DNA of 60,545 bases, filler included, from Sphacelaria rigidula (Eukaryota): assembly GCA_964200075.2 (NCBI GenBank). It is 9 parts of 9 records of this genome, joined end to end, with 100 filler letters (N's around TTAATTAATTAA, not from the genome) between each part and the next. Parts side by side here need not be neighbours in the genome. Positions count along the whole stretch, not along the records: positions 13,479 to 20,117 come from CAXNAA020018905.1; 8 more parts are not named here. The stretch is one strand, 5' to 3'. Positions 4,679 through 44,117 of the stretch are shown here, one piece after another. The first letter of the stretch is position 1. Each line of letters begins with the position of its first letter. A program made the translations under genes and the position numbers. Below the pieces are notes generated by a model. That model was not told where the DNA came from. It saw only the letters and a program-made list of their open reading frames with translations, and did no database searches.

Positions 4679-4859
4679 GCATCGGAATTTGAACTTCGCT
4701 AAGGTTAGGGTTGGGGTTAGGGTTGGGGTTAGTGTTGGATTGTGATCAGGGGCGTGGTCCCTGCAGGGACTGGCCCGATTGGTTTTGGAAAATGTGGATC
4801 GTGAGGTATTTCAAGCCACGGCGCGGTCCTCTAAGCACGCGGTCCTCTCACGCATTACA
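4675..4859. mobile_element. TG..CA MITE with telomere-like repeats; left TIR mostly deleted
   Basis: Reverse-complement homolog of 21344-21542. The TIR aagcacgcggtcctctcacgcattaca is intact, and there is an internal ggttagggttggggttagggttggggttag tract. Confidence 0.8.
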
Positions 4860-6639: not shown

Positions 6640-6739
6640 NNNNNNNNNNNNNNNNNNNNNNNNNNNNNNNNNNNNNNNNNNNNTTAATTAATTAANNNNN
6701 NNNNNNNNNNNNNNNNNNNNNNNNNNNNNNNNNNNNNNN
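6640..6739. other. Artificial contig spacer
   Basis: N44-TTAATTAATTAA-N44; gives stop codons in all six frames. Confidence 0.98.
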
Positions 6740-13478: not shown

Positions 13479-14422
13479 CATATCGACATTGGCACCTCCG
13501 CCCCGTCGGCCGTTCCACCGCTCCCTGAGCCACAAGGCCTGGTCGGCTCTCCGGCGGAAGGCCAACTGCGCGAGGTCCTCTCCAGGTGCTTCCATCGTGA
13601 TTGGGCTCGTGAACAACAAGCAGAACCATTTTGCCGCGCAACCATGCGGTACCTCCATGCTGGCTGCCCTGCCCCTATCCCGGCCAATGCTCTGGCCCCG
13701 GTTGGTACACTGCCACCACCAAACGCCTCTGAGGTGCCCTCTGAGGTGCCCGAACTCGCACGTAAAGGTACTATCTTCACAACTCATGACGGTATTCAAC
13801 TGGTTGTTCACGGCCCTACGCCTCAGCCGGGTGTAACTTCACCCGCGACCCCAGACGACATGCACGCCTACTCGATAATGATCCCACTCGAATCTATGTC
13901 CCATTTTTGATGAGACCGGGGGTAATGAAAGGCTGCTACACTGACCTGTCTTGCCGCCTTCGTGTCACGCGCACATGAGCGCTACTCAAACGTTTCTATC
14001 GGTGGATCGGTATGGAAGTGTCCACCCGCTTCTCGATTCGGCGATGCTTCCAGTGTCAAGCTCGCAAAACCTCACGACAGACAACATGTTGGCCAATCAT
14101 TCCAATGGTACTTCCTAACGCCCCTGGTCACCTCGTGTCTTTCGACTATTTCGGTCCTTTACCGACCACTGACCGTGGCAATACCTACAGCTTACTTTTT
14201 ACGGATCGCTTCAGCCGTCATGCGTCCATGTACGCAGTTATCTCTGGAGACTTAATAGCAGCAGGCACAGCTGACACCTTAGTTCACGACTATATCAAGC
14301 ACTATGGTGGTCCGAAACGGCTCCTCTCCGACAATCGTCAGCAATTTTGCTCCGATCTCTCGGATGAACTGTATACGCTCCTGGGCATCCGCAAGATAGC
14401 ACACCCTGGACAATACAATATG

Positions 14423-16345
14423 TAATATATATTGCTCGCTCAATATGTCGACGCGTCGGGTGGTCAATATATATTGGGCAAGCAATATGATGGCACGAGA
14501 GAGGGTCAATATATATATATATATGTATATATTGCGCCATCAATATGTCAAGGCTCGCGACGGGCAATATATATCGGTTGAATAATATATCATGACACGC
14601 GCCGCCTCAGTATATATTGGCCGAGTAATATGTTGGTGCGAGAAAGCATTGATATATATATATATTTTGGTCAAGTAAAACACCAGCTGTCACACGAGAT
14701 CAATATATATATATATATATATATATATTGACGATTCAACATACTCGACACCCGAAGCGGCAATATATATTGCCGCCCCAATATGTCGTGCGTTAATGCG
14801 TCCAATATATATTGGGCGGACAAAACACGAGGGAACCCACGATCACAATACATATTGGTGTAGCATTATATACTGTTTTTCAACATGTAGATTGGAAATT
14901 GTATTATAATTAGTATGGTGGGCAACTCTATGTTCGCGGGTGCTATTGAAAGATGTATCACCACATGCCGAAAACGCTCAAGATATTCCTCCGCAAGCGT
15001 GTTCAATGTATATTGGCTGCACAAAAGCTATGCGATGAGCGTGCGCAATATATATTGGAAAAACAATACTTCTGCGTGGTTTGCGTTCAATATATATCAC
15101 GGTAACAATATGCTTCGCATCGCTTCGACTCAATATATACTGACGCGTCAGTGCACACACGGCTGGCATGCACAATATTTATCGAACGTTTCATTCCCGG
15201 AGCAGATGCATGTCCAATATATGTTGTCATACATTAGTTCATGATCATGACACAAGCAATATATGTTATTGCTTCAATGTCTCCGAGGACATCTCAACAC
15301 AATATATATTGAAAGGGCAATATTTGAGCTGGCCTCAATACAAAGTATTGGTATCATATCGGCACATATTATATTGTCTGGGGTATAAGCAACACAGCCC
15401 CGGTGATCGCAGGGGTACCGAAAGGCGCATATCGACCCACTTTCTCGGTCATCGTGATGTTTAACCAAGATATGTTAATTACATCCTGGGAACAGGATGG
15501 GCGGCCCCGCACCGGTGGCCAGATAGGTATCAAGAGGCGTATATACCGGGTCGCCTTTTCTGTCGCCATATTTTCTGACCAGTATATGTATATATATATA
15601 TATGTATATACATAATATATGTATACGTCAAACGCATTCGACAACTCTCCGTAGTAATTCACGCGAATTTCTGCGGCTCCCTTTGGACCTTTCCCAATCT
15701 GCACGGGCTCCGGCATTCATCGCGTCCGGATCTTCCTTAAAGCGTACACTATATTTATAATACCTAACATATATTGGCCGACCAATAAATTGGCACCAAC
15801 GCAGACCAAATAAATATTGGCCGGTCAATATGTTCTCATCAATGCGACCCTAATATATATTGGTCGTGCAATATGCTGTCGCTCACGCTGCCCTAATATA
15901 TATTGATGGGACAATATGCGTTTAACCCAATAGTACCAGTATACATATATTGGGCGGGCAATATATATGCAGTTCCACAACATCAATATATATTAGGCGC
16001 GCAATACGTGTGCAGTCTCAGGGCACCAATATATACTACACCGGCAGAGTCATCCTACGATAGGGGGGGGGGGGGGTTGATTGCACGAAAAAAAAGGCTC
16101 AAAAGCGTGCCAGACGACCTACCACACTCGCGGTGCGCTTGTATTCAGTTCAAATCGGTGTCGATCGGTATGAATGAGCGCTATATATCCATAACAAGCT
16201 CGTTCAAGCAAGCGTTTCTCCTTTCAAGGACGATTTGACTTGAAATTTCGTGCAAGAAGTGGTCCAAAATGCCCCTGCCCCTATCGTGGATTGACTCGGC
16301 AATATATTGCAAAATTCCAACATGATCGACTAATATATATATTGG
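14423..16345. repeat. Phased 42-43 bp array: CAATATATATTG-N6-CAATATG-N17/18 with non-repeating spacers, about 26 or more units in three blocks
   Basis: Unit starts at 14423, 14465, 14507...; 15004, 15046, 15088, 15131, 15173, 15215, 15257, 15300; 15765, 15808, 15851, 15894, 15937... Confidence 0.9.
16047..16297. mobile_element. 251-bp MITE with GAG..CTC termini and 4-bp TSD GGCA (Sola2-like)
   Basis: TIRs gagtcatcctacgatagggg and cccctatcgtggattgactc, with ggca on both sides. It is nested inside the 14400-16371 element. Confidence 0.9.
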
Positions 16346-18521
16346 AAACACATTGTATTGTCCAGGGTGTGCAAGATAGCCACGAGTGCTTACCACCCCA
16401 ATGGTAACGGTGGTACTGAAAGAGTTAACCACACCATGGCCCAAATGCTATCTATGATAGTCAACGATCGCCAAAACGATTGGGATCTTCATCTTTCACA
16501 CGTCATGCTGTATTGTGACAACTCGGTCAACGCTGCTACCGGTCTCTCTCCGAACGAGTTAAATATCGGCCGCTACCCTCGTCTGCCCATCACCGTGTTT
16601 AAGAGACACACCTGTGATGGCCACCAAGGCTTGGATCAGGATCAGATATCCTACCATGACCTGGCGTGCACGCCAGCACAAAGCTTTCACTCTCGTGGGT
16701 GAACAACACGCTATCAACGCTTCGCGCCTTGAGATATCTAATAATGCTCTCTACAACTTACTTGATAAACAAATGCCCTACTTGGAAGGTTGGCGATTGG
16801 GTCTGGGTTCACAACAATTGTCGACCATCCGCCCAGGTGCCGACGGAGCTGCCAAAGAGACAGTTTTGAAGACAAGGTTATCCCTTAACTGGACAGGACC
16901 ATTTAAGATTCTGACCGTAGGGCCCTCGCCATCGTCACATGATGGCAAGTCTCTTGATGACAAGCTTCTTTATCTCGATCTCCCTCGCGATCTTCAGGGA
17001 GATGACGCCAAATCTCGCGTCTCTGTGCACCGTTGCAAACATTGCACAAACCCGCATGACACTAGCGACATGCCCAAATATCTGCCTGCCGGTCTTACGC
17101 AATACGTGCTCAACAGCTATTCGACCAAGTCACCGCCTCATCACGTTACCACTAACGACGTGACGGAACAACCCCTTCGCCTTGTTGTGTCCCATACCTC
17201 TGGTTACCAGATCACTCACGATCGGGGACGTAAAACTGCTGTCATGTACAAACCTCACTGGCAAGGCCTTCGCAGAGTATCCTGGGAAGATGAGTTCGAC
17301 CTTCAGTTGCACCGCTGAGCTATTCTCCTGTATTAGACACAACCCCAGCGACGACATTATCCTAACAACAAGAGATATCGCAACATGCACCGCGGCGCAG
17401 TAGTCCGCATACTTCACCGTGACAAAGATTTGCGCTCTGTCGCCGATGGTTATAAGTTGGAACCCACTAAGCATTGGGAAGTGAAGATCCGCGCAAAACA
17501 GGGAGTGCTCCCCAAAGGCGCCTATCTGTGTTACAAAGGCAGCGACAGCCTCTGGTGGCTGGGCCAGACCCACTCCGCCAACCTGAACGCGACTGACTCA
17601 TCCGTTGTGTGCTTCATCGATGACCCTCGACCCTTGCAGCTCAAGCTCCGCTCAGAGCTATATACCACCAGTCCATCCGCACCGCGAGTATCTTGGTGTC
17701 TTCAGCGACTCAAGTCCAAAAGCCTTCGCCGCGGAATCCAACATGACATCGATTGCACACATGATGTCAACACACCGCTTTGAGCTTCCACCGATCTCCT
17801 GCTTTTTGATCCACAATATTTTCCTCTTTTCTCCTTCCCCTATCGTTTAGATATTTCCCCCTGCTTCCATCATTCAGGACACACCAGTGCCACCCACCGA
17901 CTTCTTCAACAGTCTGCAACCGGGGTTCGTTCGGCGCACAACAATGGACCACGAATGGAACTTGCCTGGAGCACCTTCATCTTCGGCTACTGGAGCTTTT
18001 CATACCCTCGCTCTTGATTTGTATGACTGGCGCTGGACCCCTTGCAGTTTTCGAGTTGCTGATTCCTTTGCTTTCCTCAGCCACCATGCGCTCGCCGCAT
18101 GTGACTGACCTTTTGGCGGCTGAAATTGGTATCAACTACGTAGGCGTTGTGCCTCTGGCATGTCTTCCCTTTTGTCTCTTTACTTTGGCTAGCGCGTCGA
18201 AGCATTCTTGTGTTCTTCCGTTTGAGTTCGCTAGCCCGCAACAGCATTGTGTACTCCTGCGTCTCCAAGCGCACTTGCGCTTTTGGTAGCAGGTTCTGCT
18301 TCTCTCTATTGAGGTGTGGGACAACCAGGCAACGGAGTGGATGTTGCCCTCCTGGTCTGGGGGGCACCTTTTCATTTCAGCCACTACGGCCGAATGCTTT
18401 GACAGCGTTTGAGGTTGCCTTCCTCGCTGTTCATGACTTCGCGTGAAGAAAAACCTCGGTTTTCGTTGCTTTATGAGACTCCCCATCGCAACTGTAATAG
18501 AGGTTCGTCTGGGTGGGCTAG

Positions 18522-19004
18522 TGTCATGAAGCTAGGAGGCGTTGATGATCAAACCGGGGATTTTATAGTGGCGAATCTGATCAAGCTCGACTAGGTCAGA
18601 TGTGAGTTTGATAAAAGGGAATAGGCAACATTTCTAGCTGCTCTCCCGGTTTACTTGCGACGTGGAGCTGAGCAAAGCAGCTATATTTCGGTGAGCGACG
18701 TGAAAGGGCATTGAACAGAGCGATAACGAATACGGGTGAACAAGAGTCTTTCAGATCAAGTGGATGTAGCTTACCGTGTGAAGCCATTGAGGTGTGAGCT
18801 ATTTCGGACACGAACCAATACACTGTACCCCTGTGGGGACTGTCAAACTGACTCTTTCAGCGTGCGTTGAGGTGCACGTATCGCAACCCTATCACATAAG
18901 CCAAAAACGGATTGTTCACAGCTGTTTCCAGCCAATAATAAAGGATATAGCTCGCGCAGCCCAGGCAGCGCCAAGGCATACATTCTCTTCTTTTTTCGAT
19001 TACA
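18522..19004 (+). repeat. 3' LTR (483 bp) of the chromodomain Gypsy
   Basis: Starts TGTCATGAAG directly after the purine-rich tract, where homology with the contig-4 element ends, and ends TTACA. Length nearly equals the 484-bp LTR at 22931-23414. Confidence 0.65.
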
Positions 19005-19013
19005 GGTAGGTTC

Positions 19014-20117
19014 TGTAGAGTAGTCCACCTCCAGTACACGTACGTGCAGGTTCATGATGATGTACAAGTGGAACCTGCTGTAGGCGTTTTCTATTGGTTG
19101 ACGGACTTGCGGGTCTGATCGGCAGACTATGTGGATTTGAACATCACATGCTTCACGCATGTGGTTACTTCTGATAAGGAAGGCCGTGTGTTTATGAATA
19201 ACAACTGTCGTGAAGTCTCGAGGCCCTACCTAGTGAGGGAGGAAGCCCTTGGAGCAATCTTGTGACCTTGTTCTGAGTCCAGGAGGGCTCTTTAATAACC
19301 GTTTATTAAGAGGAACCCGCTGGTTTCTGGAAGAGGTTTGTCAGCTGTGGGCAGCTGCGGAAAAATTATCTAAACCTTTTACACAGGAGTGTGCACTCTG
19401 TAACGTGAGAGAGCTCACTGACAACGGAGAGACGGCTAGGTTGGCTGGAACTGTTGCGTGCAGCTATGGCAACGGGCAAGGGAGTGGGTGATGGCGATGC
19501 AGGTGAAGAGGTGAAGTTTAAGTTTACTGAGCTTATGCCTGCAGGATCGCTGAAAGCCCCAGAGTACGGACGGCATTTTAGTGAAAATACGTCCCGACGT
19601 TTTTATCTGAAATACGTCGAGTATGAAGAGGCGGTCAAAATAAACAACAAAGGACGTAGCATGCAGCCCGTCTTACTGACTGTTACTGAACTGGTGCCGA
19701 AGCTCATCCGTGCGTGTTTGTCACGCGCGATTTTTGACGGATCCGTGCTTGACGAAGATGATCTCCAGGAGGCACTAGGCCGACACGCGAAATGTTGGCA
19801 AGATAAAGAGATTGAACCTTCAGTTGCTGCTGCTGCTGTGCGGAAAGCGTTGGCGGCCCGCAACGAGCAAACTGCAATGGGAAAAGTAGAAGGGCAGTGA
19901 GGTGCCCTAGAGGAATTGCTTGCGGAGAATACTAGCGCTGAGCGTGCGTTCCGCGATGATGCAGATTTCAAGCCAGGACCCGCTCGAATCATAACTCGGG
20001 AAATGTTGAATGGACTGACCCCCCCCCCCGAATTCAAAACTGAAGTCCTCAAGTTGAACATGAAGGGGGGGTGGAAGGAGGACCCTGGGCTTGTGTTAAA
20101 CTTGAGGACTTCAGTTT
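19014..20117 (+). mobile_element. Second Gypsy element: 5' LTR (about 19014-19383) and gag; cut by the contig edge
   Basis: The LTR starts TGTAGAG and is homologous to the LTR that follows a purine-rich tract at 42122 on the minus strand. gag follows it. Confidence 0.8.
19466..20117 (+). pseudogene. gag: Gypsy gag with an internal stop at 19898-19900
   Basis: LKAPEYG..SENTSRRFYLKYVEY and FKPGPARIITREMLNGLTPP.EFK..WKEDP align with the gag at 11171-11827. Confidence 0.8.
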
Positions 20118-21343: not shown

Positions 21344-21542
21344 TGTAATGCGTGAGAGGAGCGCGTGCTTAGAGGACCGCGCCGTAGTCCAGATCACCTC
21401 AGGATCGACGTTTTTCAAAACCAGTCGGGCCAGTCTCTGCAAGTACCACGCCCCTGACCATAGCCCTAACACTAAACCTAAACCTAACCCTAACCATAGG
21501 GATATTCGAATTCCGAAGCACGCGGTCCTCTCACGCATTACA
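21344..21542. mobile_element. 199-bp MITE, TGT..ACA termini, 27-bp TIR, 5-bp TSD GGCGG, internal telomere-like repeats (Ginger-like ends)
   Basis: TIR TGTAATGCGTGAGAGGA(G/C)CGCGTGCTT with ggcgg on both flanks and an internal ccctaacactaaacctaaacctaaccctaacc tract. Confidence 0.92.
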
Positions 21543-22625: not shown

Positions 22626-23735
22626 CATTTTTCAACGAGCTAGATTTCACTAACACGTCCGAGGCACGTCGGTCCCTGCTCCATCACTCTCTGCCAGCCA
22701 CCCAGTACCCCCCCGCGAAGCATTTTTCAAAACATGTGGTGAGTGTGTCGTTTCGTGTAGTATTTTGGATAAGCATATATCCAACATATGAAGGTAACTC
22801 ACAATCAAACGAAATTTGTACGGTGCTGCCGTTCAAGCGCTTACTTCCTTGATTGACGGGTGAAGATCTCGCATGTTGCACAACACGGAGGGAAGAGCAA
22901 ATCATGCTGTTCCTGACGTGTGCCGGGTGGTGTAATGAGGAGCAAGCGGTAGTATAATGCAAGGACACAGCTTGAAACTCAAGGCACAAGCTTAGCAGGT
23001 AAGTGTACAACAGTCAGGCTGGCACAGCTCTGCACACTGCTGAACACAGCTCTGCACAATACATCAGACAAGTTCTCACGCAATAGGTTCTTCACTTCTT
23101 TTTAGCTATCTTGATTCTAACTCCAGTACCCAATCAACCAATCCAACCCAAACCAGTCAATACGTCTCACCGATGGTTAGACTTCTTTTGCTGGAAAGCA
23201 GTAGGGGAGCAGTTGGTAGTGATCGATGGTGTAAGCTTTGGTCGTGTAACACGACCTAAGCCAGTATCATTCCTGTAATTATACAAGTTCACATTCGCAC
23301 CCGACCAACTCTGAACAGACCTATAGTCTTGGCTACCGAAACAAAGCAAATAGCCAGACTTGACAACGGGTCTGAAGCGGCATGGCAATCAGGCTAATAT
23401 GCGTCTTCATGACACTAACCCACCCAGACAAACCTTTATTACAGCTGTGGGGAATTTATCCTCAAATGAGCGAAAACTAAGATTTTTCTTTACTCGTAAA
23501 GTCATGAGCGGCCGATAAAGCATACCTAAAGGAACACTCCCGTACTCAACACTCCCGTACACAACAATCCTGTACCACTCCCACACCTCAAAAGAAGGGA
23601 AGCATACACTGCTTCGAGGAGCAGAAAAACTGCTCCGGAACGCGGAAGCACAAACTTCTTCGGCGTGCTAGCTATCAACGAAGAAGCACAAATTGTTTCG
23701 GCGTCCTAGCAAACGTTGAGGGGAGAAAACAGGGA

Positions 23736-23902
23736 GGTACAACAGGGAGCAGAGCTCTATCCTGGGGGAGGCCAAAGGTACAACAGGGAGCAAAGCTTCG
23801 ACCTGAGGAAATTCAAAGGTACAACAGGGAGCAAAGCTTCAACCTGAGGGAATCCAAGGGTACGACAGGGAGCAGAGCTTCAACCTGGGGGAATCCAAAG
23901 GT
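23736..23902. repeat. 41-bp minisatellite, 4 copies, in the Gypsy 3' UTR
   Basis: ggtacaacagggagca.agctt..acctg.gg.aat.caaa repeated. Confidence 0.9.
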
Positions 23903-41542: not shown

Positions 41543-44117
41543 GTGCTATGCAGAGCTCGATCGGGCAACCTTAGTTTTTGGGTGCTTTTCTGAATTTTCT
41601 AGAGTAGTATCTGTCCTTGGCTCTGAAAGGTCCTACGTAACGTTGATAAATTTTGGGAAGAGGAGCAGGTCGAGCTCAACTCCATTGGGCAACTTTAGTT
41701 TTTGGGTGCTTTTCTGAATTTTCTGGTGTAGTACCTGTCCTTGGCTCTGAAAAGTCCTACGTAGCGTCGATAGATTTTGGGAAGAGGAACAGGTCGAGCT
41801 CAGACCACAACTCTCAATTGGTGTTGTCTGTAGACCCCTCCTGGACTCAAAACAAGGTCATGAGACTGCTCCAAGGGCTTCCTCCCTCATTAGGGCTTGT
41901 AGACTTCAAAACAGATGTTGTTCACAAACACACAGTATTCATTATCATAAATGACCTGCTGCACCTCGGTGGACACATATAATGTCAAGCAGTCATGTTG
42001 ATGCTCCAGAGAATACCTCATGACGTGATATCATGATGCAAACTTCGTATCCAAACCTCCATGCATCAACCTGCAGCTCCTCGTGCACATGGACGTGTAC
42101 TAGAGGTGGACTAAACTCTACAGCACCCCCAAACCTCCGCACTGCTCGAAGTAGAAAGCGAGTTTGACAAACGGTAGATACCGAGAATCACGTTGATGCT
42201 ACCTTTGTCCGCTTGTTAGTGACGCACGATCATGCAATATCATGTTCCACAAAGAAAGCGATAATTAGCAAAACGCTGAACATCGACAGTTGATGACAAC
42301 GTCTCAATCGAACTCAGTGAAGTCGATAGTTCAGTCACCGGCAGTTTCCAGTCGTGGCATACACACACAAAGCGAACGCGCCAAGGATAATACCATTTCA
42401 AACCGTAGCATTCGATCATATCATGCACTCAAAGCTTGATACCGCACTTTGCCTACAAACGTGTCCGCACCCTTTGCCTCAGTCCCAACTGACGCATCTC
42501 AAACCAAATATGCGGTGCTCCTTCCAGACAAATGAGCACACTATCCACATGTCCCTTTCATTCAGATGCGAAACGCTATCCATATACTTATCCAAACACA
42601 TAGCAAGCCATCGAAGACGTGCCACAGTCAAATATCACTGTATTCGCGCATGATTTATTTATCTTCAACCTCTGGAAACACTCGCGTTACCCTGCTCACA
42701 TGCAAGCCAAAATATGTCGTATGTTCCGCTTATTTTCACGCCAACAGCATCAATTACCATCCCCTACAGTCAACAGCATCAATTACCGTGTAAAGATGAT
42801 TCCACTTTCTGCTCGAACAAGATTATACGAACTTCACTTCATTCAGCATACAGTAGTATATTGAAAACTGCCTTACTCTGACTCTCCACCAGACACCATG
42901 CATCTCAGTAACTTTCAAGCGAAAATCCACATATGCATTCTAAAACTTCACTCAACGGCTTCTTTCTTTGCAGAAATCACCATGTGTTATGCGTGCCAAC
43001 CAGAGCAGCACAACACACAGATCCAGAAACAACGCCACAACCAACTACAGTCGTCCACAAAAAGATTCAGGTATACAAGTGATAGTGCGCTTCCTCAATT
43101 TTCAACAAGCAATTACACCAGTACTTGCTCCTCAACATCACCCAACCTAGCGCTCACCAAAACATCGAGCACCTCAGGAAATTCCTCCTTTGTTGTTCGC
43201 CTGCGCTCCTGGTGAGAAACAGCAGAACTCCGGCTACAGTCTCGTCTACACCGTAGTGCGGCATTTCCACTCGAACAGTCGCTCCTCGCATCATAGCCAC
43301 AGCTACAGCTCTCTTTGCTCTCCCGGAGATCAGTGGTCAATGCCCGCTGCACGCCAGGTACCAAACCCACCCAGGTATTAACATCGCGTCTTCCTCCCGA
43401 CATTATGACATTCAAGGTGTAAACAATGTCACGCATCGTTCGCTCAAGTTCAGGATGTGACAACGGCGAGTTAGCCACCACGAACCTGCGATCCACCAGT
43501 GCTTTCTCAAGCACTCTCACCACACGGTTCTTATATTGCGATGCCGTATCGCTGACCCATCCGTCCGGCGGCCCCAGCGCTTTGCACCATGTCAACAGAG
43601 GCTTCACCGTCGTTGCCGCTCGGGTCATCCATCCTTAACAATATGTACTTGAACCGATCTCCTTCGTCACCCCCCCTATCTCTCCGCGGACCACTCTCGC
43701 CAGCACTGAAAAAATTGAAATGAAGCACCTTCTCTAGGCGAGTACCATGCACTACCTCCTTGTGGGGACGGGGAACTTGCTCTCCCGCCTTGTAATCCCG
43801 AATTTCTTGAGCGTTGCAATTGCATCTCTCGCCCACACTACCTGCAAACTGCAGTACACGAGCCCGAGCGCTACCAATGTCGCGATGCAGCGTGCCAACC
43901 ACGCCATCCTGACCGAAAAGTATGCCCTCGGCCGAGCCTTTGCCTCCACAGCAACAGGATCGAATTTCACCTTCAAGGGCTCGGCACGAGCAGGCGGGTA
44001 ACCATGTAGCACTCGCCGAAAAGCGTTCGCTCTGTTCCGTACAAGCTCACGAATCTGGCTCACGCCGCTCTCCGATATACCGTTATCCGCGGCGGCTTGT
44101 ACCGCCTCCTCTGGCGC
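41543..44117 (-). mobile_element. Internally deleted Gypsy remnant with 3' LTR starting at 42122
   Basis: RT N-terminus (AFRRVLHGYPPARAEPLKV..LVALGLVY) joined directly to integrase (VPRP..VHGT..VLHFNF, WVSDTASQYKN). Purine-rich tract then TGTAGAG, homologous to the LTR at 19014. The far LTR boundary is approximate. Confidence 0.8.
41563..41802. repeat. Tandem duplication, 124-bp period, 2 copies
   Basis: gggcaac.ttagtttttgggtgcttttctgaattttct...caggtcgagctca occurs twice. Confidence 0.92.

Follow-up and report, generated by a model that had tools for sequence, protein, structure and literature searches.

Results

The window analysed here is a stretch of 60,545 nucleotides from Sphacelaria rigidula (assembly GCA_964200075.2), composed of nine parts of the genome joined end to end, and it harbours at positions 14400-16371 a transposable element that carries phased arrays of a palindromic site. 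The element lies in the piece spanning 13479-20117, and the sequence beyond that piece is not contiguous with it. As the initial annotation of this locus had claimed, it is a 2-kb element bounded by terminal inverted repeats (TIRs). It measures 1,972 bp and its 24-bp TIRs, one beginning with CACAC on the + strand (14400..14423) and the other on the - strand (16348..16371), match at 23 of 24 bases in this copy and perfectly over 24 bp in the family consensus. By analogy to a sister family (family B) and to a clade of hAT transposase genes (clade C), both described below, the left TIR would correspond to the 3′ end and the right TIR to the 5′ end in the orientation of the transposase gene. The 8-bp target site duplication (TSD) CAAGATAG is present on both sides of the element with 8/8 identical bases (14392..14399 and 16372..16379, both + strand). 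In the read contigs, the joints of empty sites skip 1,980 bp, the exact length of the element and one TSD, and both ends of the element are joined to many unrelated flanks. In the window, the element interrupts the integrase region of a decayed long terminal repeat (LTR) retrotransposon (13979..14399, + strand; Pfam rve, E 1.6e-8; Integrase_H2C2, E 0.008), for which there are paralogous empty sites. The retrotransposon reading-frame region picks up again after 16371; the two reading frames found downstream of the element have no Pfam match.

The palindrome CAATATATATTG, searched with at most two mismatches, has 27 matches within the element versus 4 elsewhere in the window; when the element was shuffled 200 times with its dinucleotides preserved, the mean number of matches was 0.89 and the maximum 3. 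A consensus of 1,646 bp, built from 14 copies of the family to which the element belongs (family A), is organised in three same-facing blocks with 22 units spaced 42 or 43 bp, and its palindrome sites map onto the window copy at 26 places. Block 1 (14423..14863, + strand) holds 10 palindrome sites with a 42-43-bp period and (AT)n expansions in the window copy. It is followed by a unique AT-rich linker (14864..15003) and by block 2 (15004..15342, + strand; 8 sites), which adjoins an inner TIR-like site, decayed in the window copy (15356..15391, - strand), and is the counterpart of an array located in a putative intron of the clade C transposase gene. A second unique linker (15392..15764) contains an (AT)n tract and no open reading frame of at least 120 amino acids, and precedes block 3 (15765..16345, + strand; 8 sites, mostly with a 43-bp period), which is 74% identical to an array upstream of a broken hAT gene (contig C4634 of G000). 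The initial annotation had reasoned that a 42-bp unit, equal to four helical turns, would set the sites on one face of the DNA; the between-block distances are 157, 443 and 49 bp and are not all in phase. The window copy is inflated by the (AT)n expansions and by a nested miniature inverted-repeat transposable element (MITE).

Each unit is made of three copies of a half-site, two of them placed back to back to form the palindrome and the third located 6-7 bp further on; the half-site is CAATAT in family A and CAATAG in family B. Across units, the motifs are 94% identical and the spacers about 30%, so the homogenisation of whole units that is expected of an ordinary minisatellite is not observed. 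The initial annotation had described an interior filled with such units, all facing one way, with spacers conserved in length and not in sequence. The single orientation holds in all three blocks. The palindrome sites and their 42-43-bp period are also found, but as three blocks split by unique DNA and not as a continuous fill, and the spacers, while highly divergent, are not unrelated since they are more alike than shuffled sequences. The inner TIR-like site was absent from that description.

The first 17 bases of the TIR occur 311 times in the genome, and the reversed control has no occurrence. From these sequence matches, family A probably comprises at least about 155 copies, and several hundred once decay is allowed for. 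The first 15 loci with paired ends all align collinearly to the window copy with identities of 74-86%, and 12 of them have a perfect TSD. We then compared 35 full copies (one locus being counted twice), which diverge from the consensus by 7.1% on average (8.6% for the window copy) and of which 25 have a TSD matching at 7 or more of 8 bases. Spacer sequence and order are identical in all copies. Insertions of at least 25 nt in the 35 copies brought no new unit; they are nested elements or microsatellites, apart from one in which existing sequence is duplicated. Large deletions remove one to three whole units in 24 of 30 cases, with 4, 6 and 14 in the three blocks. Hence, regarding whether units are gained and lost in a polar way, a question raised in the initial annotation, spacer order proves fixed and units are lost, but without any gain and with losses in all three blocks. 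Two long copies considered as possibly autonomous (L041 and L043) were rejected, as they carry nested insertions, including one that resembles a long interspersed nuclear element in L043.

Spacer-to-spacer identity is 0.298 versus 0.256 +/- 0.007 for shuffles, with none of 2000 shuffles as high. Spacers are more alike within blocks (p 0.0004) and their kinship is stronger among neighbours; in contig C4634, two neighbouring units are near-duplicates. This kinship points to an old tandem duplication of units, the mode of descent expected of a minisatellite. Spacer matches outside the family are at chance level in the 0.92 Mb scanned (7 matches at two places plus family remnants, versus 3 for shuffles), neither the whole genome nor algal viruses having been searched. 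No match above the gathering score, to a CRISPR (clustered regularly interspaced short palindromic repeats) repeat or otherwise, was found in Rfam, and the unit pattern has 0 matches in metagenome and viral collections. The 23 matches of the TIR pattern in viral collections were included in the spacer scan.

We investigated constraint on the motifs in 34 copies, a change being considered as shared when common to at least 5 copies in a column. Shared changes affect 3 of 396 motif columns, 42 of 517 spacer columns and 51 of 425 columns of unique DNA (motif versus spacer, Fisher p 4e-8), and 2 of 328 motif versus 17 of 214 spacer columns when only AT columns are considered (p 7e-6); columns are not independent events, so these p values overstate the difference. 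Inherited changes are found in 0/162 motif versus 17/210 spacer columns in block 1, 2/126 versus 13/163 in block 2, and 1/108 versus 12/144 in block 3. Five supported clades of at least five copies are defined by 1 motif, 27 spacer and 33 unique diagnostic changes; the motif deficit is weaker in two-copy clades (18, 45 and 43, respectively). Private change rates are 0.052 for motifs, 0.046 for spacers and 0.045 for unique DNA, and post-insertion singletons per column amount to 0.75 for motifs versus 0.64 for spacers. With few inherited but ordinary private changes, motifs appear to have been constrained while copies made copies and to be free afterwards, which points to a cis role in transposition and not to a host role.

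Families A and B both carry an inner copy of the TIR in which the consensus tip is TAT in place of CAC. It is located 702 bp (A) and 737 bp (B) from the same end, which is the right TIR in A, and with the same facing. None of 39 left-end copies checked uses the inner site as a transposon end with a TSD; copies that seemed to end at this site turned out to be shortened by deletion and to have the true TIR as their end. Within family A, the inner site has 1 clade-diagnostic change in 34 columns versus 76 in 425 unique columns (p 0.03), which is only suggestive of constraint. Two inner-site matches in metagenomes were discarded as chance matches in prokaryotic genes.

Family B is a non-autonomous family of about 1.8 kb, represented by 12 copies in its consensus (e.g. 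L199:7955-9712 and L204:282-2107). Its TIR starts as in family A, its units have a 43-bp period and CAATAG half-sites with a 7-bp gap, and alignment with family A is restricted to the TIRs, the inner site and the (AT)n tracts. The units of its 3′ block have remained similar over their full length, which would represent a younger stage of the same process. Two variant TIR-core patterns gave 935 and 899 further genome matches (1,834 in total), and most of the 60 loci of this clan that we read are MITEs, 103-176 bp long, that have CAATAG half-sites and are flanked by 8-bp TSDs. Their sizes cluster at about 103, 138 and 170 bp (L143, L145, L142, L159, L167 and others), their TSDs are biased to nAAnnTTn and their half-sites are paired.

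The TIRs and the inner site are also found at hAT transposase genes. The first 16 TIR bases of family A are identical to the 5′ TIR of the gene at locus L201, and one base differs from the 3′ TIR of the gene at locus L298. In L201, the 5′ TIR is followed by an array, the zinc-finger exon and exon 2, then by an inner site with a 43-bp-period array, and finally by the exons of the catalytic region. The 1.36-kb gap between exon 2 and the catalytic exon has GT/AG edges and a full-length homologue aligns contiguously across it, so that the inner array would lie in a predicted intron. Inner site and array follow exon 2 in 7 of the 13 exon-2 matches, at 68-100% identity. Family B matches L201 at 75% at the 5′ end and at 70% at the inner array. 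At L298, about 1 kb separates the C-terminal region from the 3′ end with the one-base TIR variant. No Pfam match was obtained for L298, and its relatives match PF05699, the hAT dimerisation family (P0009, E 3e-12; L102, E 6e-15).

While L201 and L298 are on different contigs, they align along the same full-length proteins, and these common homologues, together with contigs that match both queries (e.g. C9129 and C13455), suggest that they belong to a single clade, clade C. The sequence common to their arrays runs the same way in both, and this explains why all units of the element have one polarity. The exact variant 3′ TIR occurs 18 times, with only one occurrence on a contig of the transposase clade list, and the 3′ link therefore depends on one locus. 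Named homologues of the related transposase are found in brown algae and one green alga, a distribution that points to a brown-algal host. The sole candidate partner of family A itself is contig C4634, which has, in addition to the array related to block 3, two extra near-duplicate units, an inserted repeat and a zinc-finger exon. This exon lies 4.4 kb on from the array and is 35% identical to that of L201; the TIR has been lost to insertion. A pattern designed for the inner site of an autonomous family A element gave 8 matches, none of them on a contig with a zinc-finger exon. Thus, of the partner with the same TIR that the initial annotation called for, the TIR start is found at L201 and, with one base changed, at L298, but family A itself has only this broken candidate.

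In the zinc-finger exon, C-x5-C and H-x4-H are invariant in 8 aligned rows. With its structural model (predicted local distance difference test, pLDDT, of 59) as a query, Foldseek ranked Hermes and its BED domain first, with E values of 0.63 and 0.67, and comparison with the BED domain of ZBED1 gave a Z of 2.4 and a root-mean-square deviation of 5.2 over 64 aligned positions. A longer-protein search, PDB sequence searches and Pfam returned nothing for the clade exons.

Several further observations were made on these genes. At L201:831-1247, a fragment of a family B 5′ end abuts the 5′ TIR of the transposase element, forming tandem ends. A second, near-complete hAT clade without the inner-array intron is present at L102:4067-8360 and L270, with a decayed MITE-like TIR downstream that is common to two copies. 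TIR-like matches near L056 and L069/L102 were rejected as partner ends: the former is a MITE of the 170-bp type, and the sequence flanking the L102 site on its outer side is identical in two copies. In five G000 contigs (C17833, C13950, C24705, C11565 and C10231), copies of the zinc-finger exon lie near each other on opposite strands, which suggests that local inversions or fold-back rearrangements have occurred.

Discussion

In this study, we characterized an algal transposon whose interior looks like a CRISPR array. We consider it likely, with good confidence, that it is a non-autonomous hAT element, mobilised in trans by a transposase from a spliced gene of the CACAC-TIR clade, and that it carries an unusually long, phased, putative transposase-binding lattice and a conserved internal pseudo-end. 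The assignment to hAT agrees with the 8-bp TSD, with short TIRs that are shared with hAT genes and with a clade C partner that has a hAT catalytic region and a C-terminal dimerisation region, and the TSD is not the 2-3 bp of EnSpm/CACTA elements (2 bp for Ectocarpus EnSpm; PMC12477816). The initial annotation had kept known hAT and CACTA subterminal repeats as its conservative explanation while judging the length, strict period and single polarity unusual for them; it was right as to the hAT family and right as to what is unusual. Its proposal of a protein-binding lattice gains indirect support for a transposase lattice, from the selection on motifs during spread and the link to hAT transposases, but not for a chromatin role in the host, since motifs decay as fast as spacers after insertion. 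We therefore regard the element as a member of a known superfamily whose architecture goes beyond the hAT subterminal repeats described to date. In the literature consulted, no phased lattice or intronic pseudo-end is described in a hAT; Repbase and Dfam were outside this search.

The following history can be proposed. Units would have grown by tandem duplication, after which the spacers drifted, and half-sites and period would have been maintained by the more frequent mobilisation of copies whose sites were intact. By analogy to Hermes, the half-sites would most likely be read by the N-terminal zinc finger of the transposase within an oligomer, two such domains sitting on the palindrome and another on the adjacent third site. 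A module multiplied into a lattice would raise the share of scarce transposase that a non-coding element obtains. The element itself may be an internal deletion product of the autonomous layout, in which a 5′ TIR and array, an intronic pseudo-end and array, and a 3′ array and TIR follow one another. Once inserted, copies would decay neutrally and lose whole units by slippage.

The closest known relative in its ends is hAT-2_Ec32 of Ectocarpus (Repbase hAT-2_ESi), a brown-algal spliced hAT that has the same CACAC-GTGTG termini and a TIR of 21 versus 24 bp (PMC12477816). Its annotation mentions no phased array, inner TIR-like site or non-autonomous derivative; this comparison is one of annotations, and the sequence library may already hold the architecture (PMC12477816). 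In organisation, the element resembles Hermes, in which three BED domains bind a subterminal palindrome and a third site in exact phase (PMC10368747). Both have short half-sites, one of them within the TIR, a palindrome with a nearby third site, asymmetric ends and strict phasing. However, Hermes has one such module in the first 35 bp of its left end and scattered sites beyond (PMC10368747), whereas here the module is repeated about 25 times with a fixed period and one polarity, and one block is far from both ends. Tandem repeats holding secondary transposase sites are also found in Galileo, Foldback and Sleeping Beauty/Bari, but in long mirror-image TIRs and in the P or Tc1 superfamily (PMC3688188), in contrast to 24-bp TIRs, direct unmirrored arrays and spacers diverged to about 30% identity. 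Internal sites are also known in the P-element (PMC7776569). Hermes apart, little is understood of hAT transposases, and the reason why hAT ends require much more DNA than the TIR is an open question (PMC10368747).

Several observations weigh against the interpretation that we favour. The 103-176-bp MITEs have the same TIR core and few half-sites and are far more numerous, indicating that a long lattice is not needed for mobility, and many family A copies lack whole units (one unit is missing in 7 of 34 copies). The selection signal is weak in family B (13/333 versus 70/1017, p 0.049). In addition, 6 of the 13 exon-2 matches have no DNA match to the inner array, for which contig ends, deletion or divergence are guesses. 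The family A partner comes down to one broken candidate, known only up to a zinc-finger exon that an inserted repeat separates from the array, and the clade's zinc-finger exon has no Pfam BED match and only non-significant fold matches. Finally, mutation of inner putative sites in Hermes was reported not to reduce transposition by much (PMC10368747).

The selection test shows that there was constraint during spread and not which protein imposed it. It is thus conceivable that the lattice binds a host cofactor needed in transposition, such as a DNA-bending or AT-binding protein, rather than the transposase; the motif is AT-rich and host bending proteins have been proposed for Hermes (PMC10368747). 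Nonetheless, the half-site differs between families in step with the half-site of their own TIR and inner site, as would be the case for an element-encoded reader, and among 100 listed of 239 genome matches the palindrome unit is almost only in family A, so that we consider a host cofactor unlikely. We give slightly less credit to a functionless decayed minisatellite, carried within a hAT MITE, in which conversion or self-repair of the palindromes would have kept the motifs uniform. Such a history would account for spacers that descend from common units, for unit-sized deletions and for tiny MITEs that move without arrays. But self-repair or conversion should also have lowered the change of motifs after insertion, which is not the case, the motifs are far more alike across units than the spacers, and period and geometry recur in a family without alignable interior.

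Less probable again is a restraining role, in which arrays and inner site would act as an operator repressing the transposase gene or as a sink soaking up transposase. The inner array does lie inside the transposase gene, in the predicted intron, and the inhibitory subterminal DNA of piggyBat provides a precedent (PMC11707139); however, the inner array was retained in families A and B, which are non-coding, and block 2 motifs of family A are still constrained in spreading lineages, when a purely inhibitory site should be lost. We hold two remaining possibilities to be very remote, and equally so. The Ectocarpus KDZ (Zisupton-type) families have 8-bp TSDs and complex tandem-repeat termini, yet the termini listed for them differ from ours (PMC12477816), and the TIR and inner site of the family flank hAT-homologous coding DNA, the TIR matching hAT-2_Ec32 termini. 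As for an array that captures spacers or produces small guide RNAs, what speaks for it is its look, with a constant palindromic repeat and spacers of constant length and differing sequence, as in CRISPR arrays. Spacer capture, entertained in the initial annotation as a less likely idea, is refuted by identical, ordered spacers in all copies and the absence of a new unit in 35, with losses in all three blocks. In contrast to CRISPR arrays, there is no acquisition and no spacer polymorphism, the spacers are akin and match outside sequences at chance level in the 0.92 Mb scanned, and the array resides within a TIR transposon, with no adjacent cas gene, the upstream flank being a retrotransposon integrase and two downstream frames having no Pfam match.

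Within the non-autonomous hAT reading, the inner site may enhance transposition, restrain it or simply be carried along. We favour a positive role, because two non-coding families that cannot otherwise be aligned have both retained the site and because block 2 is constrained. More tentatively, and with clear reservations, we suggest that this clade needs a third site in its transpososome: an uncleavable intronic pseudo-end with its own phased array, kept by non-autonomous derivatives and acting in the manner of the phage Mu enhancer, the 42-43-bp period being the footprint of one transposase oligomer. The internal enhancer of this bacterial phage is a transposase-bound site some hundreds of bases from one end, is read by a separate domain and may aid synapsis. 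The inner site of the element differs from it in copying the TIR itself, and its enhancer role is putative.

Families A and B constitute a natural experiment, with the same period and palindrome-plus-third-site geometry, different half-sites and a per-site selection during spread that can be measured. With them, it can be tested directly how spaced sites are read by an oligomeric transposase, and whether an internal pseudo-end helps or restrains transposition. They also show that a CRISPR-looking array can arise by tandem duplication and selection on binding motifs, which is a warning for genome scans.

Other features of the window were noted. The MITE nested in the element (16047..16297) is an unrelated 251-bp element with GAG...CTC termini and a 4-bp TSD, GGCA, and is presumably Sola2-like. 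It is also found at L086, L220, L275 and L052, with lengths of 248-252 bp, and its TSD is clear in 3 of 5 copies, matches at 3 of 4 bases in one and is absent in one. In two runs that we guess to be RNA, cover was low for the hAT element and much deeper for the nested MITE; nothing firm can be said on expression. The junctions of the window (6640-6739 and eight similar ones) consist of N runs around a 12-base linker. Degenerate short telomere-like GGTTAG/CCCTAA runs lie at 4703-4738 and 21452-21495, and a similar run is found at L298 inside a small palindromic insertion. Finally, a 41-bp unit is repeated four times in tandem at 23735-23902, and 41556-41802 contains a tandem duplication of 124 bp.

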